DNA of 64,000 nucleotides from the NCBI RefSeq assembly GCF_036588685.1, contig NC_086376.1, positions 94,715,630 through 94,779,629 of the forward strand, read 5' to 3'. Every line of letters begins with the position of its first letter. The stretch's first letter is position 1. The translations under genes and the position numbers were made by a program. This document shows, piece after piece, positions 8,335 through 51,590 of the stretch. The notes beneath the pieces are model-generated. The model was given only the letters and a program-made list of their open reading frames with translations. It did not search any database and was not told the origin of the DNA. This DNA is from Mytilus trossulus (Eukaryota).

Positions 8335-8424
8335 CGTTAGAGATATAGGGGGAGGGTTGAGATCTCACAAACATGTTTAACCCCGCCGCATTTTGCGCCT
8401 ATCCCAAGTCAGGAGCCTCTGGCC
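8335..8424 (+). ncRNA. Putative twister, second copy of the same subfamily (element ~8330-8657)
   Basis: Nearly identical to 37108-37198, with one P4 mismatch (CCUA/CAGG) and two P5 mismatches. Confidence 0.72.
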
Positions 8425-9699
8425 TTTGTTAGTCTTGTATTATTTTAATTTTAGTTTCTTGTGTACAATTTGGAAATTAGTATGGCGTTCATTATCACTG
8501 AACTAGTATATATTAGTTTAGGGGCCAGCTGAAGGACGCCTCCGGGTGCGGGAATTTCTCGCTACATTGAAGACCTGTTGGTGACCTTCTGCTGTTGTTT
8601 TTTATTTGGTCGGGTTGTTGTCTCTTTGACACATTCCTCATTTTCATTCTCAATTGTATCTCTCTGCTAAGTTATCTATTATAGGTCAGATTGCGACCTT
8701 CAACACTGAGCAAGCTAAAATAAAAGACCCGACATGACAAATGAATTAAGTTTTTTTTCTTTACAACACCCATGTTATTTAAGACATTGTAATATGAACG
8801 TGCACGATTGACATGTTTCAATTACAATATAAAACCAACGCACACTTTTGTATGGCAGTTCTGAGAAATTAAAACTTGGGAGCTTTGCCAGATCTTGTTA
8901 TTCTGTTTCTTTGGGAGATGGTAATTTGATATTTGGAATAAAATACCTAATGGCATATTTACATATTTATCCTTTACTCTACAATATTCAATTAGTAATT
9001 AATGAAATAAAAGTGGGCGTCCATTTCATTTTAGTAACGTTTATAGTATTACATGTATCCCGAATTCAAAGGAAAGACGAATACATAATGTTAATAAATC
9101 ACACGAAATAAAAGATTATACGATTTCTGTTCAATTAACACGTTGAATGAAACAACAATATATTGCATCTTAATTAAAATCACAAAGGGATTTAATGTTA
9201 AGACTTCAAAAAGCAAGAATATAAAACATATCTATGAAGAAGAAAAATGCAAATTCTTACAAACAGGTTTGCCGTTCATGTAATCCAAAGTAAAACAAAG
9301 AATTTGAAATGAATCAAAATAGCACATGGAATCATCTACTTCAAATCTTAAGAAAATGTTTTAACAAGGCATTGATGACTTAACATGTAATCCGAAAATA
9401 TACGTACGTTTTCAACGACGAAAAACTAATTTACTTTTAACTATATACATCTTTGTAAAAAAAGTCGATTGTCCATCAAAAGAACATGGTCGAGATTAAC
9501 ATATAGTTTTATAAAATGTGCCAATAAATGTTCTCAAATTTTAAAGTCACCGACTACGACGACGGAGTTCAGGATACTTATTTCTCGTTTCCGTAAAGTT
9601 ACAGATTCGACAATGATAATGATACACTTTTATTGATGTAAATTCAAAATTGATTTATAATTCCCCTGATTCGTTGTATGAATATTTATCCTCACCAGT

Positions 9700-18510: not shown

Positions 18511-21500
18511 AAATAACAGTATTTACTAAGTTAAGTTAGATTTTATAGTTATTATTGTGAATTCTTCAAATACATTATTTACTAGGTTAGACTTGTGGTC
18601 ATTATTGAAATATATTTACAAAATACAATATTCGCTGTGTCAGACTTTAGGATTAATGAATTCAAATATGTCTGTTCTTTAGTTCCATTTACGTTACAGT
18701 GTCTAACAGTTCATGTATTGTATCATTGGTTCAGTTGACACTAGAGTTTTAAAAATTGCAATAGTTTTGGAATATGATAAAACGTTATGTAATAAAGTAA
18801 TGCACATTTTCATTCATAATTGTCCTTTGTTAGTCTTGTATATTCTTTTTTAATTGATTAAATTTATACGTTTAGTATGACACCCATTACACTAAACTGG
18901 TACACATTTTTGTTCAGGGGCCAGCTGATTGTTTTGCTGTGATGAAGACCAATTGGTGACCTTTGGCTTTTTTAAAACTCTATGGTCGGGTTGATGTCTC
19001 TTTGACACATTCCCCATTTCCATTCTCTATTTTATTGTTGGATGAAATGAGTGGAATATCAAATATACAAGCAAGCAAAATTTAAACTTTATTGTGTGAA
19101 AAGTATTCAAATATTTGTATTGTGTTCATAAATAAACTCATCAGAGATACCAGGACTAAATTTTGCATATACGCCAGACGCGCGTTTCGTCTACATCAGT
19201 GACGCTCGAATCCGAAAAAGTTAAAAAGGCCAAATAAAGTACGAAGTTGAAGAGCATTGAGGACAAGATTCCTAAAAGATTTGCCAAATACAGCTAAGGT
19301 AATATATGCCTGATGTAGAAAAGCCTTAGTATATAAAAAATATCAAAATGCCATTACACCACATGGCGATATTTGAAGTCAAGTTTTACGAAATTATACC
19401 AATGTGACATTTTAAATCTTGTTTTATCAATTACTAAGACAGTTAAACCAAAGTATAACGCAAACAATTCACCACACAATTTATTGTTTGAGTATTTATT
19501 ACATATTTTCTAACCGATGATGTCCGTTTGAGTACTAGTAAATGAAGAAACATCGAGTGTCCAAATAGCTTATAAAAAATGCATGACAGTAGTATACCGT
19601 TGCTTAATAGTCATAAATCAATTAACAAAAAACAAATCCGGCTTACAAATTAAACCCACTTATAAGAGGAAGCCACACAACAACAAAAACGTTGAACTGA
19701 TCACAAAAAAACAAGGACCAATATCCATAGACACCACAAAAGCGTGGTCCAATATTTTATTCTAAGTAATTTGGGCAGATTTTTAGTGGACCTATTGGCA
19801 GACTCATTACAAATGCGTTTTGACAATCATCCCGAATTAATTAAACTACTAGAAGTTACTGAAGAAAACGAAATACAAATTTGAAAAAAAGCCATATAAA
19901 AGTGATTGAAAGAAAACAATAAAGTTTTTAAAAGAATCAGTAGAGAAGTTTCAACTATTCGGAGTTAATTCATTGTAATATGCATGCAGTATCTCAATAC
20001 TTATTTTAGTCATTAAAAATAAGAAAACATATATATTTTCCTGTTATAAAAAAAAAGCACTAAATTTTCTATTTTAGCATTCCTATGACCAGTACCCTTA
20101 GTGGTATGTGCATCCAGCATCGAAAGTCTGTACTTATATAAAACATTTATTTTTTATTTATTTTAAAGTGAATACTCAAACCAGAAATCGACGGTACTAA
20201 ATAGTTTCAACTTTTAACGACCAGAAAAAATTGAAATATAGATATTATACTATAATTAAAATAAAACATTCTAGTCGTTTGTTGACTGTCCCTTTGATAT
20301 TTTTCGTCTCTCTTTTATCATGGTACCTGAAACTAGTTCAAAAGAGCCTTTTTTAAAGTCAGTTGCAGTATTATAGAGAACCAGTTCCAAAGAGGTCATT
20401 AATAGAATTAAACAAACAACCAATTTCCAAAGTGGTCATCTGTTGAACTGTAAAGACAACCAGTTTCTAAAAATGTCATTTCCGAGGATAATTCAATCGG
20501 AAAGTCCCTAATCACATGGCAAAATCAAATGACAAAACACATCAAACGAATGGACATCAACTGTCATATTTCTGACTTGGTACTGGCATTTTCAAATGTA
20601 GAAAATGGTGGATTGAACCTGGAGTTTAGAAACAACCAGTTTTTAAAGACGTCCTATGATTTCTTTTAACATCGATTAATACATTCACCTATTTCAGTAA
20701 AATTCATTACAGGTCAAGTACAATATCTTTTCTTTAGTTAACACTTATACCATGTTACCTATCAATCGTTTTGGAATACATATGATAAGGTATTTAATAA
20801 GGCTATTAAGATTTTCGTAACTTTATCATCTTTGATAGACGAGAAATTATAAAATCTTTTGTAGATATTACACAACCATACCATTTCTTATTATGTTCAT
20901 ATTCATAATGTAATAGGAATTTTAAAGACGAACTTTTACGGTTATTATAAGCAATCAGAGACACAATCTGCAATCAAGTAAAAGTAATGAAGTACACATA
21001 ATTCTAACATCACGTTTAAAGGTAACCTTCGGTTTGATCTGCTCATATTTCCATTCTATTTTTTTGATTCCGGATTGAAACAACAGTTTGGAACACGTTT
21101 AATAGATAAATCAAATAAAAAGAAATTAACAAAACAAGCATAAAACGATTCATAATTCGTTATAGTCTAGTAGTACAAATTAAAACTAGAACATAAGGTC
21201 AATTCAATAATGTTGTTGGTTCGTGTTGTTTAGTCTTTGGGTTTTCTATGTTGTATCTTCTGAACTATTTTTTGTCTGTTTGTTTTTTTATTTTAGCCAT
21301 GGCATTGTCAGTTAATTTTCGATCGATGAGATTGGCTGTCCCTCCTGTATCTTTCTTCCACATTTGGTGTATAAAGTAGGGTCGTTATGTGTTCAATAGT
21401 CGGATGTAAATAGTAGAATTTAAAATATTCAAGATGGCAGCATTGTTATCATACATGTAGCCAACTCACAACTTTGTTATGTGAAAAGTATGAAAACGTA

Positions 21501-29112: not shown

Positions 29113-31571
29113 AAGAGGGACGAAAGACACCAAAGGGACAGTCAAACTCGTAAATCTAAAACAAACTGACAACGCCAAGGCTAAAAACGAAAAAGACAAA
29201 CAGAAAAACAATAGTACACATGACACAACATAGAAAACTAAAGAATAAACAACACGAACCCCACCAAAAACTAGGGGTGATCTCAGGTGCTCCGGAAGGG
29301 TAAGCAGATCCTGCTCCACATGCGGCACCCGTCGTGTTGCTTATGTGAATACAAATCCGGTAAATAGTCTAATTCGGTAGGTCAAATTCATGAAAGGGAA
29401 GGGGATTGTAGTTACGACGTAAGGAACATATCCGATATAATTTGTGAAACGGTTATTCCATAACGGTCAACCAACTCGTGATGGCGTCCGTAAAATTTAC
29501 GAAGGGATGATTTCAACTTCACCATTTGGAACTCTTGGTTTAATAGCTTCCTTGTGAGCAGTAACCCTCTATCAAGAAAATCATGATAGGAAATGCAAGC
29601 ACGGGAATATCGTATCAATTGGGAGATATATACCCCGTATGCAGGTGCTGCTGGAATGTTGCTACTTAGAAATGGAAAGTTCACAATTGGAAAGCTGAAA
29701 TCATATCTTTTGTCGTAAAGTTTAGTCTTCAACCGACCCTCATTGTCAATTTCTAGATGTAAGTCAAGATATGAAGCCGACTTAACTGTATCTGTAGTAT
29801 CCTTTATCTCCAATTCGATGGGATAGATGCGATCCACATAGTCACCAAATTTTGAATTGTTTAGTGAAAGAACGTCATCTATATAGCGGAAAGTAGAGTT
29901 AAAGGATATTGCTAACTTCTTATCTTTCTTCCTAAGAAGTTCCTGCATGAAGTCAGCCTCATAATAATAAAGAAACAAGTCAGCAAGTAGAGGGGCACAG
30001 TTTGTTCCCATTGGGATGCCGACAGTCTGTTGAAAAACACGTCCTCCGAACGTAACAAATATGTTGTCAATCAAGAAATCAAGCATCTTGATAATATCGG
30101 TTTCAGAGAATTTTTTGTTTGAATCAGAATGGTTCTTTACAAAGTATGATTTATCCCTCCCTAAGACAAGATACTTGTATCTACGTTGGCCATTCTTTTT
30201 TATGAAGCAAAGTAATACCAACTCTTTTAATTTGTCTTTTAGTTTGGAATGTGGAATACTTGTGAAAAGAGTAGAAAAGTCAAATGTTTTAATACTGTTA
30301 CAAGATGAAAGAGAGTTAGATTGTATGTACTCTAAAAGATCTTTGGAATTTTTAAGTATCCACATCTGATTCACGCCACCTCTAGAATAGGCAGTTTCAC
30401 AATAACTTTGAAGCCCGTCTTTGATTGCTGATAAAATGGATGTTAATAATTTAGAAAGGGGTTTCGTGGAGCACTTGGAAGACCCAGTAATATACCGTTG
30501 TTTGTAAGGACACTTATGTAGTTTAGGTATCCAATACAGTGATGGAAGATCCAGTTCTTCATCTTTGGTTGAAATACCAAAGGAACAAAGAACAGACCTA
30601 TGATTATCCAGGATTTCCTCTTTGGTAAGTGTAGTGAGGGTATATGTTGTTTCCAAGTGAATTGTCTATACCTAATTCGTTTATCAAGCAATTAATGTAA
30701 TGACTTTTACAGATAAAAACGATGTTATTTGGGGCTTTGTCTGCGGGGACAACAACATATTCATCATGGAGGTCAGATAGGTGTTTAGTAACGTTTGGAT
30801 CTTTGAAGATTGACGTAGCATGGGCATTGATGGACCCATTCAGTTTCTTAATTCTGATTTGTATTAACGACCTCACTGCCTTAATCCATTCGGATAGAGT
30901 GTCTACGTCTTCCTTCTCGCGCTTAGCCCATTGCCTGGCATAATCCTCGACTGAATCCATCAAAATTTTAAAGTTGTGTTTTCCAATTGATGGATTTAGG
31001 CTCACGATATTTCGGACCTTTCGATAACACGTTTCGTAGAGAAGTGTTATTAACAATGTTTAGGTCGCCGGTAATAACGTGGCCAGCAGGATTGTGAATT
31101 GGGAAATAGCACAAGTGCAATCAGGAGGTTTAGACTTGAAGTCGTCAATATCGAGATCCTGAAAAACGCGTTTGTAATTGAAAATTTTAGTTGCAATAGG
31201 TTTGGTATAGGTATAAGAAATTATTGGTACAGACTGGTCTTTGAAATAAGGAGGTATTTTCGATTGAACTAATTTATGATGAAGGATATTGCCTAGATTG
31301 ACGCCATCGAGACCTTTGTTGGCAAAGGAAAGATTTAGAAAAGATCTTTTCTCTTTTTCATCTTTTCCAATGCGAACTGGCTTGAAAAGTCTGTGACTAG
31401 CAATATCCGAAATTATAGCTTGTAGTTTGTATTGGTTTGAATGAGGGTTTGTTACAGTGGATTCCAAACATAAATTGAACAGAGAATGAAGTTTTGAAAG
31501 GGGTAATGAATACAGTTTCGTGCGAATGTGATGAATACCTAACGGTTTTTGTATGCATGGCAGTAAGTGTA
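29113..31571 (-). mobile_element. 5'-truncated Penelope-like retroelement (Naiad/Chlamys-type) inserted in a 28-bp satellite
   Basis: Frameshift-split ORF (31397-31597, 31060-31467, 30604-31056, 29412-30656) with [24 protein letters not shown] and LYWIPKLHK motifs. No C-terminal endonuclease. ~300-nt 3' UTR ends in cctcttt. Apparent TSD AATGTAA at 29106-29112 and 31572-31578. Confidence 0.9.
29412..30656 (-). CDS. Reverse transcriptase domain of the Penelope-like element (disrupted upstream by frameshifts)
   Basis: RT motifs FDFSTLFTSIP, QTVGIPMGTNCAPLLADLFL, FRYIDD, ASYLDL, then KLYDKR..FPIVNFP thumb region. Confidence 0.92.
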   Translation of the reverse strand: METTYTLTTLTKEEILDNHRSVLCSFGISTKDEELDLPSLYWIPKLHKCPYKQRYITGSSKCSTKPLSKLLTSILSAIKDGLQSYCETAYSRGGVNQMWILKNSKDLLEYIQSNSLSSCNSIKTFDFSTLFTSIPHSKLKDKLKELVLLCFIKKNGQRRYKYLVLGRDKSYFVKNHSDSNKKFSETDIIKMLDFLIDNIFVTFGGRVFQQTVGIPMGTNCAPLLADLFLYYYEADFMQELLRKKDKKLAISFNSTFRYIDDVLSLNNSKFGDYVDRIYPIELEIKDTTDTVKSASYLDLHLEIDNEGRLKTKLYDKRYDFSFPIVNFPFLSSNIPAAPAYGVYISQLIRYSRACISYHDFLDRGLLLTRKLLNQEFQMVKLKSSLRKFYGRHHELVDRYGITVSQIISDMFLTS

Positions 31572-33266: not shown

Positions 33267-33913
33267 TTACATCTATAGATTGACAATGAGGGTCGGGTGA
33301 AAACAATACTTTAAGACAAAAGAGATGATTTTAGCTTTCCAATTGTGAACTTTCAATTTCTAAGTAGCAACATTCCAGCACCTGCATACGGTGTATATAT
33401 CTCCAAATTGACACGATATTCCCGTGCTTGCATTTCCTATCATGATTTTCTTGATAGAGGAGTGCTGCTCACAAGGAAGCTATAAAACCAAGACTTCCAA
33501 ATGATAAAGTAGAAATCATTCCTTTGTATATTTAGGACGCCATCACGAGTTTGTTGACCGTTATAGAATAACCGTTTCACAAATGATATCGGATATGTTC
33601 CTCACTACGTAACTACTATCTTCTTTCTTTCATGAATGTGACCTACCGAATTAGACTATTTCCCGGATTTGGTATAACATAAGCTAAACGACGGGTGCCA
33701 CATGTGGAGCAGGATCTGCTTACCCTTCCGGAGCACTTGAGATCACCCCTAGTTTTTGGTGGGGTTCGTGTTGCTTTTTCTTTAGTTTTCTATGTTGTGT
33801 CATGTGTTTTATTGTTTGTCTGTTTGTCTTCTTTCATTTTTAGCCATGGCGTTGTCAGTTTATTTTCGATCTTTGAGTTTGACTGTCCCTCTGGTATCTT
33901 TTATCCCTCTTTT
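33267..33913 (+). mobile_element. 3' fragment of the same PLE family, inverted relative to 29113-31571
   Basis: Reverse-complement match to about 29113-29762 (RT thumb plus 3' UTR), with substitutions and small indels. Confidence 0.9.
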
Positions 33914-35830: not shown

Positions 35831-37107
35831 CCACTTGTTCTTTTATGGAGCATGTTTTCTCATTCTTCACTGTTAACAAAATACATAAACATCACAGAAC
35901 AAACGAATATATTGATATCTATAAATACAAGTCCGCAAAAACATGCTGCTAGTGAAGTGAGACTCAGACAAAAAGTAGACAGGACAATGTTTGATCACGT
36001 TCATTTCATATAAATCTAAAATGAAATTCAAGTGATCATTTTCAAGTCAGATTCACCTAAAACTGGCTTAAACATGAAACATGGAATGACTAAAGGTTTA
36101 CAACACTTTTTGTCACTACGGAGGAAATGAGGACTGATTTTTGACTTTCTGACATATCATGTTTAGTGGAGATTTTTTAGTTTTGAGGTTCGACCAAAAA
36201 CATAAACATCCATTTTATTACTGTGTGCAATTGATAAATTGATAAAAATCGTTTCCACCGATGATGATTGCTCACTTTTTCTATTACTTCAAAACTTCAA
36301 ATAAATATTGTTTATACGTTATTAATTATTTTCATGTACACTAACGAGGACAAAACAGGGTTTCTTATTATTATGTTGACTTTTTCAATACAATCAAAAT
36401 AATGATAAAACAAAATTCATTTCAAGCAGTGTAATTTTGAAAAGTCAAGGTATAATGAATGACATCAATTCCAGTGTGCATGACAAGTTTTACCGGGACA
36501 ATTTAATCAGCTATGCTCGAGATTTATTGATTTCCTAAACATTGAAGCATCAATAGTTCTTACAGATAAAATGTTCACATCTGGTCTATCTCGAAGCCAG
36601 ATTATAATAAACAAGGAATTATGTAACGTGATTTAACTTTGTCCTCTTTTATTTAATTAAAGTGGATGTAACGAATTGAGCAACAATACGGCCTTGAACA
36701 ATGACATAAGCACTGTATCTTAAAGTCTACCATAAATGGCCTCGATATGAAAAATATGAAACAATTTAATGAGAAAACAAATCTATTAAAAAACCATTTT
36801 ACGAAATACAAATATGACAGACATAAACAAGTGACAACTACTGAATTACAGGATTCTAACTTGAGACAGGCACATGTATAATATGTCGGGTTAAATAATA
36901 CTCTCTTGTCCTTGAACAGTGGTGTAATGGCACAGTATAAGGACAAAATATAAACAGCAACTCAAAGAGGCTTAATCATCAGATCGAAACATGTATATCC
37001 GATTAAGATATATAAACACTGATCAAATAATTTGATTTGAAGGTTACATGTATATTGTTCAATCTAAAATTCAGCATTAAGGCAATTTAAACAAAGATTA
37101 CTACATT

Positions 37108-37198
37108 GGTTAGAGGTATAGGGGGAGGGTTGAGGTCTCACAAACATGTTTAACCCCGCCGCATTTTTGCGCCTGTCCCAAGTCAGGAGCCTCTGGCC
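37108..37198 (+). ncRNA. Putative P5-type twister ribozyme heading a ~315-bp dispersed repeat (37101-37420)
   Basis: P5 GGUUAGAGGU(37108-17)/GCCUCUGGCC(37189-98). P2 GGGG(37121-24)/CCCC(37154-57). GA-GGG(37125-29) pairs with loop CCC(37177-79). UAA at 37151-53. GC(37158-59) pairs with GU(37182-83). P3 CGCA/UGCG. P4 CCUG-UCCCAAGU-CAGG-A. Confidence 0.8.
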
Positions 37199-39283
37199 TT
37201 TGTTAGTCTTGTATTATTTTCTTATGTACAATTTGGAAATTAGTATGGCGTTCATTATCACTGAACTAGTATATATTTGTTTAGGGGCCAGCTGAAGGAC
37301 GCCTCCGGGTGCGGGAATTTCTCGCTACATTGAAGACCTGTTGGTGACCTTCTACTGTTGTTTTTTATTTGGTCGGGTTGTTGTCTCTTTGACACATTCC
37401 CCATTTCCATTCTCAATTTTAATTATATTTTGAGACTTAATTTGCTTATTCAAAAACTGTCCTTGATTCAATCACACGATACCGTTGTGGTTATGAGATT
37501 CTCTAATCACTTGATGTCTTTATTTTACACAAAAAAGCAATTCCTATAAAATTCGGTAGGACCAATTCGTTTATAAATGATTGAATATATTCATTGGTAA
37601 ATTAGTCTCACAATTCATGTGGGTATTGAACAAATGTTATTTTGTATTTCCTTTCATTGGCAGTGAGAGTCTTGTAATAACATGATCTTTGAAATATTTA
37701 AGGTGATTTAAATATCGATGACTACAATTATCAATGACAATAAAGTAAGTTATAAAAAATAAATGAAACTACAAGTCTTTGATAATTTTGCATTCACTCA
37801 TCCTAGTTCAATTAGAATAACACAAATAACAAAAAAGACAATGGTATCACAAGCATACACTCAAATTACGAAAATGTTCAATTCTATAAATGCTTAATAA
37901 GATTTCAGATAAATAAAATTCACTTGGAATAAAATTTTCTATAACAGTTACATTGATTGCTAATCTGTTCGATGTCACAAGTATAGAATTTGATTGATAA
38001 GCAGAGTAGATTCATAGTGTTCCAACAACAAATGTGCCGTACCCTACTTTTACTGTGTTCAAAGATGAGCTGTATATGATAACATTTAAATGACAGACAA
38101 ACAGACAAACAATAATACTCCTTCAGCTGACCTTAGATATAAAATGTGCACGGAAAATTAAAAAAAATAATCGACAACTCAATTTTCTTATCTATAATAA
38201 ACAACAAAACTCTTTACGCGAAAAAGTATTTCAATTATCGGAAAGTAATCAAGCTGTCCAAACTGTTGAATTAACCTGATTAATTAAGTATGTTATGTCT
38301 TACATAAAATAACCTAAGCGGAAGACACACTGTGTTATTATGTAATTGATGTCACCATTCTGTCTTTAATACCAACAAATGTCGTTAAGGAATTGATGAC
38401 TTGATTATTTTAGGAACATAATGCTCTATAGTACTACATTTTGCCTACACGAGCCAGTGCTGGTAGTTTTCGCAAACTAATGTCACCTCAACAAATACCT
38501 ACGATTTCCTTTAGTAAACTCAATTTGACATTAAGCAAACAAAAATATAAATACCATAACATTCAATTACTATGTATTTTAAATACTTGTACATCTTACG
38601 ATATCGATACAAAACGATTTCCATTTATGAATTAGTGTATGGTTCTCTTAATTCTGTGTTCAAATAATATGTTTAGGGAAATATATTTGTTAAAATATTT
38701 GATTTACCTTGATTTTAATATTTCGAAGTATGTGGTTTATCTTTTTCCTAAAATATGTGGAAAAGTTAGTGGTTTATCTTACTCCTAAATTATGCGTAAA
38801 AGTGAATGATTATGCTTGATCCTAAAGTATGAATTAAGTGTATGGATTATCTTGATCCAAAATTATGTGTAAAAGCGTATGGTTTATCTTGATTCTAAAT
38901 TATTAAAAGGATAATGTTTATCTTGATCTTTGATATCCCAATCACGCTTGGACAAAGAACCCCCTTAAACCTCAGAAATTATTAAAAAAAATGTGAAAGT
39001 CATAGTATGATCGTGGTGGTCGTAATTAGGGCGAGCTGATGTCGTTATGATGCAGAGATCAAAGACCAACTTTGAACATGATCAAAACATTCGTAATGTT
39101 TGCCGTCTTTAATACGACTTTACGTTCTATACGCAAAAATTTCAAAACGACTTTCTGTTGATATGAAAACGGCGGATGCACTAACATCTACTTGTTGTTA
39201 AATAATGGACATACATAGCAAACCTACTTCTGCAATCTTCAATCCAACTGCTGTGTATCGAATTGGCTGATCAGGGTAATTTT

Positions 39284-43599: not shown

Positions 43600-43663
43600 C
43601 CAGGATTATAATTTAGAACGCCAGACGCGCGTTTCGTCTACATTGGACTCATCAGTGACGCTC
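43600..43663 (-). ncRNA. Hammerhead ribozyme motif (type I, minimal)
   Basis: CUGAUGA-GUC caaugua GAC-GAAA-CGC gcgucug GCG-UU. Damaged relatives at 41150-41188 (-), 19170-19208 (-), 12775-12806 (-), 44497-44535 (+) and 59322-59362 (+). Confidence 0.75.
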
Positions 43664-43977: not shown

Positions 43978-44147
43978 ATAAGATTATTGTTAATGGTGTT
44001 TTTTTTATAATTTAAAACATGCAGTACTTTGTTTATAACACATATTGTATGAAATCATTGATATAAGATTATTGTTAATGGTGTTTTTTTATAATTTAAA
44101 ACATGCAGTACTTTGTTTATAACACATATTGTATGAAATCATTGATA
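43978..44147. repeat. ~85-bp tandem duplication abutting the retrozyme array
   Basis: ataagattattgttaatggtg...gaaatcattgat present twice. Confidence 0.9.
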
Positions 44148-44152
44148 CACGT

Positions 44153-46140
44153 TGTATCTCCCTCATGCAAAGTTCTGATTCCTTTTACGAATTTGACTAT
44201 ACTTTTTGGACCCTTTGGATTATAGCTCTTCATCTTTTATATAAGCTTTGGATTTCAAATATTTTGGCCACGAGCATCACTGAAGAGACATATTTTGTCG
44301 AAATGCGCGTCTGGTGCAAGAAAATTGGTACCGTTGATTTTATTATTATTATTTATTATTTTATTGTTTGCAATAGTGTGAATTATTTTATATAATATGA
44401 ATGTTCTTATCCTGGGCATACAAACAATGCCGTATTTGGCAAAACTTTTTCAACTTTTGATCTTCAGTGCTGTACAATTTTGTATTGTTTTCGTCACTGG
44501 TGAGTCTCGTGTGGACTAGACGCGTTTTTGGCGTATTGAATTTTAAACCTGATGCTTTTTGTTATCTATTAATCATGCTTTTATGTCTTATATGTTCTGC
44601 TTTTTATTTGTATTGTAGTCCTGTAATATTTTGTTTTCATTTCAATGTTATATTTAACTGTGCCATTAAAGTGCGAGGTTTGGCATGCCTTAAAACCAGG
44701 TTCAACCCACCACTTTTATTCCCCTTTAAAAGTGTCCTGTACCAAGTCAGGAAGATGGTCATTGTTATAATATTGTTCGTTTCTGTGTGTGTGTTGCATT
44801 TTAACGTTGGGTCCTTTCTGTTTTCTCTTGTTTTTGAGATAAGACGTGGCACGGTACTTGTCTATCCCATATTTATGTATTTGGTTTTGATTTTATATTT
44901 GTTATTCTCGTGGTGTATTGTCTGTTGCTTGGTCCGTTTCTGTGTGCTGTTGCGTTTCGGTGTTGTGTCGTTGTTCTCCTCTTATATTTAATGCGTTTCC
45001 CTCGGTTTTGGTTTGTTGCCCCGATTTTGTTTTTTGTCCATGGATTTATGAGTTTTGAACAGCGGTATACTACTGTTGCCTTTATTTATTACTACCACTG
45101 GGTCGATGCGTCTGCTGGTGGACTATTAGTCCCCGAGGGTATCACCAGCCCAGTAGCCAGTACTTCGGTACTGGCATGAAAATACGGATTTTTTGTGTTA
45201 TTAAAATTTGCTGTAACAAAATATTAGAAATTATTATAAATTAAGGAATGTATCTCCCTCATGCAAAGCTCTGATTCCTTTTACGAATTTGACTATACTT
45301 TTTGGACCCTTTGGATTATAGCTCTTCATCTTTTATATAAGCTTTGGATTTCAAATATTTTGGCCACGAGCATCACTGAAGAGACATATTTTGTCGAAAT
45401 GCGCATCTGGTGCAAGAAAATTGGTACCGTTGATTTTATTACTACCACTGGGTCGATGCCTCTGCTGGTGGACTATTAGTCCCCGAGGGTATCACCAGCC
45501 CAGTAGCCAGTACTTCGGTACTGGCATGAAAATACGGATTTTTTGTGTTATTAAAATTTGCTGTTACAAAATATTAGAAATTATTAAAAATTAAGGAATG
45601 TATCTCCCTCATGGAAAGCTCTGATTCCTTTTACGAATTTGACTATACTTTTTGGACCCTTTGGATTAGAGCTCTTCATCTTTTATATAAGCTTTGGATT
45701 TCAAATATTTTGGCCACGAGCATCACTGAAGAGACATATTTTGTCGAAATGCGCGTCTGGTGCAAGAAAATTGGTACCGTTGATTTTATTACTACCACTG
45801 GGTCGATGCCTCTGCTGGTGGACTTTTAGTCCCCGAGGGTATCACCAGCCCAGTAGCCAGTACTTCGGTACTGGCATGAAAATACGGATTTTTTGTGTTA
45901 TTAAAATTTGCTGTTACAAAATATTAGAAATTATTATAAATTAAGGAATGTATCTCCCTCATGCAAAGCTCTGATTCCTTTTACGAATTTGACTATACTT
46001 TTTGGACCCTTTGGATTATAGCTCTTCATCTTTTATATAAGCTTTGGATTTCAAATATTTTGGCCACGAGCATCACTGAAGAGACATATTTTGTCGAAAT
46101 GCGCATCTGGTGCAAGAAAATTAGTACCGTTGATTTTATT
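44153..46140 (+). mobile_element. Tandem array of 350-bp hammerhead-containing repeats (non-LTR retrozyme), interrupted by a ~745-bp insertion
   Basis: Unit markers at 44153, 45249, 45599 and 45949 (period 350). Each unit has CUGAAGA-GACA/UGUC-GAAA-UGC gcRucug GUG-CA at 44280, 45376, 45726 and 46076. Retrozymes of about this size are known from mussels. Confidence 0.85.
44661..44761 (+). ncRNA. Putative twister, subfamily E
   Basis: GA-GGU(44675-79) pairs with ACC(44741-43). CAACCC-AC pairs with GU(44746-47). P3 CACUUUUA/UAAAAGUG. P4 CCUG/CAGG-A. P5 CCAU/AUGG. P2 is weak. Confidence 0.65.
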
Positions 46141-47999: not shown

Positions 48000-50900
48000 T
48001 GAAATTCAGCCTTATAGCTTCAATAACAATCAGTATTGTCTAAACATTCGGACTAGTGACTTAAATAATAATATGCTAATTAAGTTACTTAAATAATAAA
48101 CAGCCTAGTTGCTTCATCAAAAGCCACATGCTTAGTGTCTTCAACAACAACCAGCCAAGTGCCGTTAATTAAAACTTGTCCAGTGTTTTCAATTATAAAC
48201 AGCCTAGTATCTTTAACAACCAGCCGAGAATTTGAACAACCAGCTCAGTGTCTTCAATAACTAAACAACCTGTCCAAAGTATTCAACAACAGTCAGCAGT
48301 GTCTTCAATAACAACATACAGAGTCTTCATCAACAACCTGCCATGTGTCTTCAACGAAAACCTACCCAGTGTTTTCAACATCGACATGCCGAGTGTCTTG
48401 AATAACTACCCGCCAAGTGTTTGTAATAACAACATGCCCAGTGGCTTTAACAACAACAAGCCAAGCCACTGCAAGTGTCATCAACATCAACCAGCCCATT
48501 GTCCTCAACACCAAGCCCAGTGTCTTCAACATCTATCAACTCAATGTCCTCAACAACAAGCTCGGTGTCTTCAACATCTATCAATCCAATGTCCTCAAAA
48601 CCAAGTCCAGTGTCTTCAACAACAACTACCCAATAGTCTGCAATAACTACAAGTCCAGTATCTTCAATAAAAACCTGGCCAATGGCGTCAATAACAACAT
48701 GTCGAGTGGCTTAAATAACTAACTATTAGCCTAGTAACTTTTATTACTAAATGCCGAGTGTATTCAACAACAACCCGTCAAGTGTCTTCAACAACATGCT
48801 GCCCACTGATGTCAATAAGAACATATAAAAAAGAAGACTGATGTGGTATGATTGACAAATGAGACAACTATCCACAAAACACCAAAATGACATAGTCATA
48901 AACATCTATAGGTCACCGTACTGCCTTCAACAATGAGCAAAGCCCATACCGCATAATCAGCTATAAAAGGCCCCGATAAGACAATGTAAAACAAATCAAA
49001 GGAGAAAACTAACGGCCTTATTTATGTAAAATAAATGAACCGTGCCCAATGTCTTCAAATACAACCGGCCCATTGGCTTTACAAACAACCTGTCCAGTGG
49101 CATTAATAACATGCCTGGTGTCTTAATATAACTATCAGCCTATATTTTAAAACGACATGACCAGTGGCTCAAATGACATCATGCCGATATGTAAAAATAA
49201 AAATATGTCCAGTTGCGTCAATAATAACATGTTCATTGGCTTAATTAACTATCAGCCCATTGGCTTTAACTACAATTTGCCAAGACTGAAGTTTCTTCAA
49301 TAACATAACGCCCGATGGCTTCAATTGTGGCGTCAACGACGACCTGCCCATGGGCGTCAATAAGAACAAGCCAAGTGTCTTCACCAACAGACTGCCCACT
49401 GGCTTCACACACAACCTCAAGCGGCTTCGATACCACTCCGCTCAGTTGCGTCTATAACAACCTACACAGTGGCGTCACATAACTATTAACCCATGGCTTT
49501 AATTACGAATTGCCGAGTGACTTCAACCGCCTCCTTTCCCTCGTCATTAATAATAATTTTCCCCCGTTGTGTCAATTACAACATGCTCAGTGGCGTAAAT
49601 ACTAACATGGCCAGTGGAGTCAATAATAACATGCCCAGTGGCTTAATTTAACAATCAGCATTGTGGTTTTATATATCAACTTGTCCAGTGTCTTCAATAA
49701 CAGCACGACCAGCTGCGTCAACAACAACCTGTCCATCGGCATCAATAACTACCAGTCCAGTGGATTCAACCATAATCAGCCAAGCGTCTTCATTAACAGC
49801 TTGCCAAGTGGTTTTACAAACAACCTGTCCAATGTTTTCAATACCAACCTGCCAAGTGGCGACTATAACAAACTAACAAACTGCCCAGTGACGTAACAAA
49901 CAACCTGTCCAGTTGCTTCAATACCAAATTGCCCCGTGGCGTCTAAAACAACAAACCAAGTGCGTCAATAACCACATGCCTAATGGATTAGCTTTTAGCC
50001 CATGGCTTGAATAACAACATGCCCAGTGGATTCAACAGTATCTTGCCCAGTGGCGTCAATGTCAACACGCCCAGTGGTGTCAATAATACCTCGCCGTGTG
50101 GCGTCAATAACATCACGCCCAGTGGCGTCAATACTACCTCGGTTAGTGTCGTCAATAATACCTCGCCCAGTGGCGTCAATAACAACACACCCAGTGGCGT
50201 CAATAACAACCTGCCCAGTGGCTTCAACAGCATCTTGCCCAGTGGCTTCAATGTCAGCCGGCCCAGTGGCCTCAATAACAACACGCCCAGTGGCGTCAAA
50301 AACAACCTGCCCAGTGGCTTCAAAATCATCTTGCCCAGTGGCTTCAACAGCATCTTGCCCAGTGGCTTCAATGTCAACCTGTCCAATGGCTTCAATAACA
50401 ACACGCCCAGTGGCGTCAATGTCAACACGCCCAGTGGCTTCAATAACAACTCACCCAGTGACTTCAATGTCAACCTGCCCATTGGCTTCAATAGCAACAC
50501 GCCCAGTGGCGTCAATAACAACACGTCCAGTGGCGTCAATGTCAACCTGCCCAGTGGCTTCAATAACAACATGCCCAGTGGCGTCAATAATAACTTGTCC
50601 CGTGGCGTCAATAACATCACGCCCAGTGGCTTTAATAACAACACACCCAGTGGCGTCAATGTCAACCTGTCCAGTGGCTTCAATGACAACACGCCCCGTG
50701 GCTTCAATGTCAACCTGCCCAGTGGCTTCAATAACAACACGCCCAGTGACTTCAATGTCAACATGCCCAATGGCTTCAATAGCAACACGCCCAATGGTGT
50801 CAATAACAACACGCCCTGTGGCGTCAATGTCAACCTGCCCAGTGGCTTCAATAACAACACGCCCAGTAGCGTCAATGTCAACCTGCCCAGTGGCTTCAAT

Positions 50901-51590
50901 AACAACACGCCCAGTGGCGTCAATAACAACTTGTCCCTTGGCGTCAATAACGTCACGCCCAGTGGCTTTAATGACAACACGCTCAGTGGCGTCAATGTCA
51001 ACCTGCCCAGTGGCTTCAATAACAACACGCCCAGTGGCGTCAATAACATCACGCCCAGTGGATTCAATGTCAACCTGCCCAGTGGCTTCAATAACAACAC
51101 GCCCAGTGGCTTCAATGTCAACCTGCCCAGTGGCTTCAATAACAACACGCCCAGTGGCGTCAATATCAACCTGTCCAGTGCCATCAATAACATCACGCCT
51201 AGTGGCATCAATAACAACACGCCAAGTTGCGTCAATAACAACACGCACAGTGGCGTCAATAATTTCTCGCTCAGCGGCGTCAATGACAACATACCCAGTG
51301 GCGTCATTAATAACACGCCAAGTTGCGTCAATAAAAACACTCCCAGTGACATCAATAACACATATATCTGTACAATGTCTTCAATAACAACACGAATAGT
51401 GGCCTCAATAAAACCCGCCCAGTAGTTTCAATGACAACAGTCCAGCGGTTTGAATAACAATAGCCAAGTTGCTAATATTACGACATGCCTAGTGGCTTCA
51501 CTTACAACTAACCCAGCGGCTCAAATAACAACCTGTCCAGTGGATTAAATTATTAATAGTCTAGTGCCTTAATATAACTATCAGTAGATT
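48000..51590. repeat. 24-bp minisatellite (cccagtggcttcaataacaacacg) with a homogeneous core at ~50010-51300 and decayed flanks
   Basis: Period 24 with four long open frames in the core. The left flank is interrupted by a dispersed repeat at ~48825-49040. Confidence 0.93.

Follow-up and report, generated by a model that had tools for sequence, protein, structure and literature searches.

A truncated Naiad tail with a broken hammerhead and a conserved twister-like fold inside a mussel retrozyme array

Naiads are a clade of Penelope-like elements (PLEs) for which Craig et al. 2021 (PMC8557442) list a GIY-YIG endonuclease, a CX2-5CxxC finger and CCHH, CxC, GxKF/Y and DKA motifs; its authors read the absence of hammerheads in Naiads as hinting that ribozymes may be dispensable. 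The paper looked for hammerheads only, and the word twister is absent from its main text. The hammerheads of PLEs have been reported to cleave as dimers, as cited in parts of PMC7761336 and PMC6765202. Retrozymes of 350 bp are described from Mytilus by Cervera and de la Peña 2020 (PMC7229834), and a 2026 preprint, in its accessible portion, links retrozymes to PLEs mainly in vertebrates and mentions neither mussels nor twisters. Here we analyze an insert within a hammerhead retrozyme array of the mussel Mytilus trossulus, on a stretch of 64,000 nucleotides (contig NC_086376.1, positions 94,715,630 to 94,779,629) that we call the window and whose numbering we use throughout. Almost certainly, the insert is what 5' truncation has left of the 3' end of a young Penelope-like retrotransposon of the Naiad clade; we refer to it as family A. 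Our overall explanation, to which we give a probability of roughly 0.6, is that this truncated tail carries a broken hammerhead relic together with a conserved twister that likely cuts tandem transcripts and probably does so only as a dimer.

A search of the mussel's own genome with the insert returned 3979 candidates, and all 40 of the 40 that were scored cover it nearly end to end at 97-100% identity, so that its motifs are not a product of chance. In 30 fetched copies the 3' end is constant at GCCTTTATTT and the 5' ends are staggered, mostly beyond the start of this copy. Long copies continue upstream into an open reading frame (ORF) with a GIY-YIG-type endonuclease before the reverse transcriptase (RT) and with CxC, GPKY and DKA motifs. 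One frame of 927 residues has VYGIECTLC…YVGET at residues ~59-75 and RT motifs past residue 640, and the ORF ends after the RT. The N-terminal GIY-YIG was read by motif, and Pfam gives a weak RVT_1 match (E 0.009); the other Naiad motifs are present as CSISKCNRKNCKTC (the CX4C…CxxC finger), CTLC…H…H, DCSC, GPKY and PADKAS. The best 150 RT matches are 93-100% identical, and one of them lies within the 927-residue frame. The full-length form had been pictured in an earlier note on this DNA, made from its letters alone, as a hammerhead-spacer-twister-tail element; it is instead a protein-coding Naiad of 4.76 kb, and most copies extend 5' into the RT ORF.

The arrangement of the copies is also that of a Naiad: they are 5'-truncated and form partial tandems, or pseudo-long terminal repeats (pLTRs), and a canonical hammerhead is missing, with no more than the relic described below. 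At one locus (L135) the 4.76-kb unit stands in tandem, its tail joined to the next head. Thirty of 41 head matches were fetched, and 22 of them are preceded by a tail, six lie in one small head array and two have no pLTR (some of these are neighbouring or duplicated loci). The tail-head junction at the 22 loci is exact in 18, ending GCCTTTATTTATCA, and differs by one or two letters in four. The pLTRs measure from 26 to at least 1494 bp at these loci, 13 of the 22 being under 390 bp, and 3115 bp in L135. The locus in the window is one ordinary truncated Naiad copy among at least hundreds. A 206-bp upstream piece and an inverted twister at another locus (L032) were considered as parts of the element and rejected as separate insertions.

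How did the tail come to lie within the array? The earlier note had described a ~745-bp insert that splits a retrozyme unit. The insert is there, measuring 746 bp at 44345-45090 between GATTTTATT (ending at 44344) and ACTACCAC (from 45091), but no unit is split internally by it. It lies on a natural tail-head boundary: GATTTTATT, the word found just before the insert, is also how the array ends at 46140. It consists of (ATT)n filler, 728 bp of the other element and a final ATT. The TTATT-rich junctions claimed in that note were borne out, with TTATT on both sides (44340-44344 and 45086-45090) and the filler at the 5' junction, as was the tail end GTTGCCTTTATTT, at 45087. Insertion would have proceeded by target-primed reverse transcription at TTATT^A, where both elements end. 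A family A copy at locus L078 entered at TTATT^AC inside the RT gene of another element, and 24 of 30 family A copies are followed by A; target preference therefore suffices. A single template-jump event of the Naiad RT, running from a retrozyme multimer to the Naiad tail and on to a retrozyme tail, would likewise put both junctions on natural RNA ends. It would also suit the right junction, GCCTTTATTT-ATT-ACTACC, which resembles the Naiad's own GCCTTTATTT-ATC-ACCACC, and locus L100, where a retrozyme tail is again joined to a truncated family A copy. However, the exact junction of the tail with the retrozyme head occurs once in the genome, and the insert is flanked by duplicated TTATT. We regard insertion at TTATT^A into the array as the simpler account and the template jump as rather unlikely.

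The 5' part of the insert is itself a decayed copy of a second retrozyme family (retrozyme-2) within the Naiad 3' untranslated region (UTR). Local alignment of a retrozyme-2 unit (from locus L172) with the family UTR covers 293 bases with a score of 215, compared with a maximum of 51 in 200 shuffles, and the hammerhead fragment of this retrozyme that neighbours the insert matches the relic region of the Naiad UTR at 71-73%. The degenerate hammerhead of the earlier note proved to be a relic as described, with its nominal cleavage site after 44528, not 44535. In the usual numbering of the hammerhead core, CUGAUGA has become CUGGUGA (A6>G, 44500) and GAAA has become UAGA (G12>U, 44517; A14>G, 44519), G12 being a base with a catalytic role; helix III with the cleavage site, once CGCGCGUC, now reads CGCGUUUU. 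The relic at 44492-44533 lacks the CUGANGA plus GAAA core and the NUH site of a type I hammerhead and has no Rfam match. Throughout the motif the window equals the majority of 30 copies, indicating that the damage was inherited and is not decay of this copy. The subfamily consensus cores are all broken: CTGGTTA/GAAG and CTGGTGA/GAGG in the sisters, CTGGTGA/TAGA in the young family. We are very confident that the hammerhead in the insert is dead.

These results bear directly on the model of the earlier note, a non-coding hammerhead-spacer-twister element cut twice to release a ~170-nt ligatable RNA. Both ribozyme classes had been named correctly, and the two motifs are linked, at a spacing of ~175 nt in many copies, at other loci and in sister subfamilies ~20% diverged; an ancestor just after capture may even have had both ribozymes active. 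The linkage does not extend to families C and D, which carry the twister without a hammerhead core. Double cleavage cannot be the mechanism of the family, because no subfamily consensus has an unbroken hammerhead core. Among 108 twisters of the A clade, 79 have a hammerhead homolog upstream, 66 read CTGGTGA, and one of the 79 has both core halves intact (overlapping loci may count one site twice). In the whole genome a single locus, L172, has an intact hammerhead at this distance upstream of this twister; it was considered as an intact dual-ribozyme element and rejected, being a later retrozyme insertion behind a dead relic. No minicircle junctions were found in the genome, in 259 fetched sequences or in reads and contigs, including the joints of four read runs, and the insert, as part of a coding element with a broken hammerhead, is not the non-coding unit between two working ribozymes that defines a retrozyme. 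We consider the dual-ribozyme model very improbable indeed. A retrozyme copy would rather have been captured into the Naiad UTR and then have lost its hammerhead stepwise, presumably because a second, monomer-active cut would sever the tail. For the direction of this event we favour capture by the UTR; the retrozyme may, in the reverse order, have arisen from such a UTR.

The twister named in the earlier note was recovered, at roughly the place given there, as a type-P5 fold with its predicted cleavage site at C44703^A (Table 1). It has the type-P5 features P4/L4 with pseudoknots T1 and T2, GA before T1' and N^AA at the site, and P3, P4 and P5 form in the predicted fold of the region (z -2.15). 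A generic P4-L4 descriptor applied to 464 kb gave 76 matches, compared with 73-81 in shuffles, and does not discriminate alone; the twister families were then found by sequence similarity. Six family consensuses were parsed (A from 51 copies, A2 from 34, B from 22, C from 23, D from 7 and E from 7), and B2 was left unparsed. They display compensatory changes in pseudoknot T1 and in P2. T1 pairs as ACC/GGT in A, A2 and B, as CCC/GGG in C and as CCT/AGG in D; family E is excluded from this evidence since it was found by a T1-variant search, which biases its consensus and which otherwise yielded mostly single-mutant copies of known families. P2 pairs as CCC/G(C)GG, TCC/G(T)GA, CCCC/GGGG or TCCC/GGGA, T2 is AC/GT or GC/GT, and the sequences of P3 and P5 change yet still pair. 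Beside the cleavage site, the P2 of family A shows two pairs, one bulge and a C-C, and P2 is fully paired in A2, B, C, D and E. In C and D the twister core is canonical, with four pairs in P2, and the twister of C matches Rfam Twister-P5 (RF02684) with E 0.0046 and 23.1 bits.

The fold persists across considerable divergence of the elements that carry it. The A, C and D twisters sit downstream of RTs that share 38-69% protein identity; C and D are the 3' UTRs of other young RT families, C being a full Naiad and D known from its RT end. When the UTRs of A, C and D are compared, the sole significant cross-family match is the C-D twister core (E 8e-08); A and C match weakly at P4/L4 (E 0.26-0.68). 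The hammerhead core CTGANGA…GAAA was not found in the 3' UTRs of these three families. By eye, the published mytilid consensuses Naiad_Mgal, Naiad_Bpla and Naiad_Mphi (PMC8557442 supplement) end with the same twister fold, with P4 as CCCG/CGGG in Naiad_Mphi, and the twister region of family B matches the 3' end of Naiad_Mgal. The divergence between A and A2 is free of search bias only at P4/L4, where it is 0 of 16 as against 19-23% upstream and 9% downstream; a MAFFT alignment of 12 twisters is out of register between families. It is highly likely that a conserved twister fold is under selection here.

Two of these families deserve a description of their own. Family C is a very young Naiad of 4.0 kb with the most canonical twister, present at L257:5104-8121 and L258:4884-7907 and, within the window, as short copies spanning ~8336-8660 and ~37098-37420. 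Its ORF of 1006-1008 residues has four in-frame TGA codons at conserved cysteines (in the CxxC finger, before GIY-YIG, in CCHH and 8 residues past DKA), and its 3' UTR has a match resembling a selenocysteine insertion sequence (SECIS; E 0.24, below gathering). Judged from these codons, family C is likely a mussel selenoprotein Naiad; selenoprotein Naiads have been reported for clams and spiders. Family D (L233-L256) is a third young RT family, with T1 as CCT/AGG and the 3' end CTTCCTATATCTA. Twister-like Naiad tails, mostly decayed, occur at 13 sites in the window, about one per 5 kb, for example at 2265, 8398, 13386, 13878, 37172, 41841 and 54773 on the plus strand and at 20586, 10936 and 1657 in counts on the minus strand.

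Between T1' and the cleavage site, where P1 is expected, all six parsed consensuses have a perfect palindrome of at least 8 nt (8-10), in five different sequences: GGCATGCC or its 10-nt extension in A and A2, then TAGCTAGCTA, TGAGATCTCA, TGGTACCA and GGGATCCC. The palindrome TGGGCCCA is present in 23 of 24 young family D copies. Second palindromes then follow (AACC-A-GGTT, AAACATGTTT, AAACGTTT and AACATGTT). The chance of a first palindrome is 3.3% per 12-nt window. Alone, the P1 linkers fold weakly (0 to -2 kcal/mol), and their predicted gain on forming a homodimer is 13-17 kcal/mol, a value that 1-12 of 300 shuffles attain. That the palindrome in P1 stays perfect while its sequence changes suggests dimer-dependent cleavage, like that of PLE hammerheads; from these modelled energies we propose this tentatively, putting it somewhat below an even chance. 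Read by eye, the 3' UTRs of oyster and hemichordate Naiads (PMC8557442 supplement) have a conserved motif of a different kind, in which a perfect 10-nt palindrome again varies in sequence; this motif may act as a dimer signal or be another ribozyme.

Under our reading, a read-through RNA with two twisters, from a tandem or from a pLTR longer than ~390 nt, would pair through the palindromes, be cut twice and then be ligated into a unit-length circle. RT starting at the tail would copy round the circle past the junction, producing truncated copies and pLTRs of any length, and a transcript with a single twister would stay uncut and usable. The twister site lies 384 nt inside the 3' end. Of the copies selected on the tail alone, 30 of 40 rows were used; 19 of these 30 continue across the site, and no copy ends within 5 nt of it, the nearest ends being at 394 and 364; 9 of 22 pLTRs run through it as well. 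A pile-up of 5' ends at the site was therefore rejected for both the 30 tail copies and the 22 pLTRs, and, since copies traverse the site, their template was either uncut or re-ligated. It is probable that some mytilid Naiad twister cleaves; for family A itself we would put cleavage at an even chance.

Several observations weigh against this reading. The family A twister has a C-C first pair in a three-pair, bulged P2, and the C-C form is the commoner one, with 1759 exact-pattern matches compared with 314 with another letter. Rfam gives no match to the family A twister even at E 10; at gathering level it returned nothing in the window, and in its search the array hammerheads were matched, the hammerhead and twister of the insert both unmatched. 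The Rfam score of family C also lies below gathering (37.6). The predicted monomer fold binds P2' into a hairpin with the palindrome. The search pattern itself forces the low A-vs-A2 divergence at 44671-44711, Naiad_Mphi has one U-U mismatch in T1, and, by eye, the Naiad_Mcor consensus stops without the twister motif. The palindromes are not independent draws, because the families share ancestry. Seamless copies suit an uncut linear tandem template equally well as a circle. In one RNA-seq run no pile-up of read ends was found at the twister site of families A or C, a weak test because the known hammerhead site of the array shows none either and the run comes from a related organism or strain. 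Reads of run X24 over the Naiad tail are ~2:1 first-mate-plus, opposite to the retrozyme; this bias was rejected as evidence on the Naiad's own RNA, since it fits passive transcription of dispersed copies.

The same element could accordingly be envisaged with a family A twister that no longer cuts, or that is a mere folded signal for dimerization or packaging, an uncut tandem transcript being copied. The C-C mismatch, the bulged P2, the missing Rfam match and read ends, and copies that read through the site all suit such an element; in the account of Craig et al., Naiads proliferate without canonical hammerheads, and the palindrome in a different motif of other published Naiad 3' UTRs points the same way. 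Yet both pseudoknots, GA and ^AA are kept, with compensatory changes, across the divergent RTs of A, C and D, which a mere palindrome would not need, and S. mansoni variants with a weak P1 still cleave, according to PMC8501958. We find an inactive twister rather doubtful. Less probable still is an ordinary monomer-active ribozyme, with every Naiad template a re-ligated circle. It would be in keeping with the canonical core and four-pair P2 of C and D, with cleavage without P1 (reported in that same paper, though inefficient) and with the wide range of pLTR lengths up to that in L135, but it leaves the conserved palindromes unexplained, and with 13 of 22 pLTRs below 390 bp, one-twister transcripts would lose their tail. 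We return, then, to a twister that would cut tandem transcripts as a dimer. In its widest form, mytilid Naiads would have replaced the PLE hammerhead by a dimer-activated type-P5 twister with a palindromic P1 and circular templates, the first natural twister of this kind, and the Naiad machinery would move hammerhead retrozymes as mini-Naiads that share its head; this whole chain we hold as speculative and rather unlikely.

The link between retrozymes and Naiads comes from the head. Both retrozyme families and this Naiad share a 5' head (ACCAC…CTGCTGGTGGAC…GTCCCCGAGG; window 45091-45180, L172:1220-1300 and L135:5038-5110), which also begins published Naiads of oysters, mussels and hemichordates and recurs in looser form in corals. 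It is possibly a promoter or an RT-recognition structure. Both retrozyme families have this Naiad head motif and a TATT end, which makes Naiad proteins their likely mobilizers. A 77-bp tandem array of the Naiad head alone lies directly upstream of a family A RT match (L213-L218, G000:C7:84508045-84508843). The array that flanks the insert has the make-up of non-LTR retrozymes, namely tandem 350-bp non-coding units with a type I hammerhead in each; the truncated unit differs from the three full ones at 2-3 of 192 bases. Retrozyme reads are strand-biased, with joints going back 350, and tandem DNA gives the same joint.

Table 1. Coordinates of the features at the locus, in window numbering
Feature	Positions	Strand	Remarks
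Intact hammerhead of a separate retrozyme-2 fragment, neighbour outside the insert	43618-43661	-	Rfam Hammerhead_1 E 7.4e-06
Retrozyme family 1 unit (350-bp type), 5'-truncated, 192 bp	44153-44344	+	ends at natural tail GATTTTATT
Intact type I hammerhead of the truncated retrozyme unit	44274-44317	+	Rfam Hammerhead_1 E 3.9e-05
(ATT)n filler, 5' junction	44345-44359	+	not present in other copies
3' UTR end (last 728 bp) of Naiad family A, unit ~4.76 kb	44360-45087	+	fixed 3' end, staggered 5' ends
Decayed retrozyme-2 copy within the Naiad 3' UTR	44360-44570	+	ends at the natural 3' end of that retrozyme (CTATT, 44570)
Type I hammerhead relic	44492-44533	+	core CTGGTGA at 44497, TAGA at 44517
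Type-P5 twister-like fold	44662-44759	+	parts assigned from the S. mansoni table of PMC8501958, plus family parse
Twister P5	44662-67/44754-59	+	forms in predicted fold
Twister P2', GA, T1'	P2' GUGC 44671-74; G75 A76; T1' GGU 44677-79	+	family parse
P1 region, two self-complementary blocks	44680-44703 (GGCATGCC 44682-89; AACC-A-GGTT 44694-702)	+	predicted dimer contact
Twister predicted cleavage site and P2	C44703^A; P2 CCC 44706-08	+	first P2 pair C-C, one bulge; family parse
Twister T2 and P3	T2 AC 44709-10/GU 44746-47; P3 44711-34	+	family parse
Twister P4 and T1	P4 44736-39/44748-51; T1 ACC 44741-43	+	family parse
Naiad 3' terminus (…CAGCGGTATACTACTGTTGCCTTTATTT), fixed end of copies	45050-45087	+	loose read ends at 45087-45089
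Three full, exact 350-bp retrozyme units	45091-46140	+	head ACTACCACTGGGTCG…CTGCTGGTGGAC…GTCCCCGAGG
Hammerheads of the three full units	~45370-45413, ~45720-45763, ~46070-46113	+	type I

Elsewhere in the window, an 84-bp direct duplication at 43978-44147 lies directly upstream of the retrozyme fragment. Other PLE RT remnants, 64-68% identical to family A, are found at 29418-30401 (-) and 33267-33606 (+). Arrays of a 24-bp repeat at 48264-51543 (64 copies at 49998-51543) have raised GC and a strong C skew and are possibly a repetitive coding exon.

Should mussel Naiads retain a twister in one and the same position, the conserved need would be for self-cleavage and not for the hammerhead, and other Naiads would then merit a search for other ribozyme classes. 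The UTR of family A holds its own control, a decayed hammerhead beside an undecayed twister, and with its palindromic P1 a dimer-gated twister could be tested simply at the bench. The head that retrozymes have in common with Naiads points to a likely mobilizer of the abundant retrozyme circles of mussels. The lead to pursue is the conserved twister, with its palindromes, in mytilid Naiads, whose group has until now been described as lacking canonical ribozymes. The literature searched yielded no paper that places a twister in a Penelope-like element, but this literature is incomplete, and published twister lists outside it could already hold mussel sequences.

In comparison with the Naiad clade as presented in PMC8557442, family A is alike in its N-terminal GIY-YIG, CxC, DKA and C-terminal RT, and likewise in its 5' truncation, pLTR tandems, conserved head motif and lack of a working hammerhead. 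It is a family distinct from Naiad_Mgal, its protein being clearly divergent by eye, and its unit of 4.76 kb exceeds the usual 3.4-4.4 kb of Naiads because of a longer UTR. With the type-P5 twister of RF02684 the Naiad fold shares the order P5-P2'-GA-T1'-P1 region-N^AA-P2-T2-P3-P4/L4-P5; it differs in that T2 ends in GU and not GC, P2 in A and B has three pairs and a bulge (C-C in A), and the P1 region is two palindromes and not a stable hairpin. The S. mansoni Perere-3 twister variants (Liu et al. 2021, PMC8501958) are similarly retrotransposon-borne with a weak P1. That twister is of type P1, lies at the 5' end of an APE-RT non-LTR element and sets the insertion end; in contrast, the Naiad twister is of type P5 and is found 270-390 nt in from the 3' end of a PLE, and copies do not end there. 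Closer in position are the minimal hammerheads of PLE pLTRs (Cervera 2014; Lünse 2017, as cited in PMC7761336 and PMC6765202), which share the location of the ribozyme in the 3' UTR or pLTR, a weak self-complementary stem and the presence of two ribozymes per tandem transcript; the Naiad twister differs in ribozyme class, and its cleavage as a dimer is a prediction. Finally, the flanking 350-bp array, with type I hammerheads and two related families, corresponds by description to the mussel non-LTR retrozymes of PMC7229834, and our analysis goes beyond that account in finding that their head is homologous to the head of Naiads.

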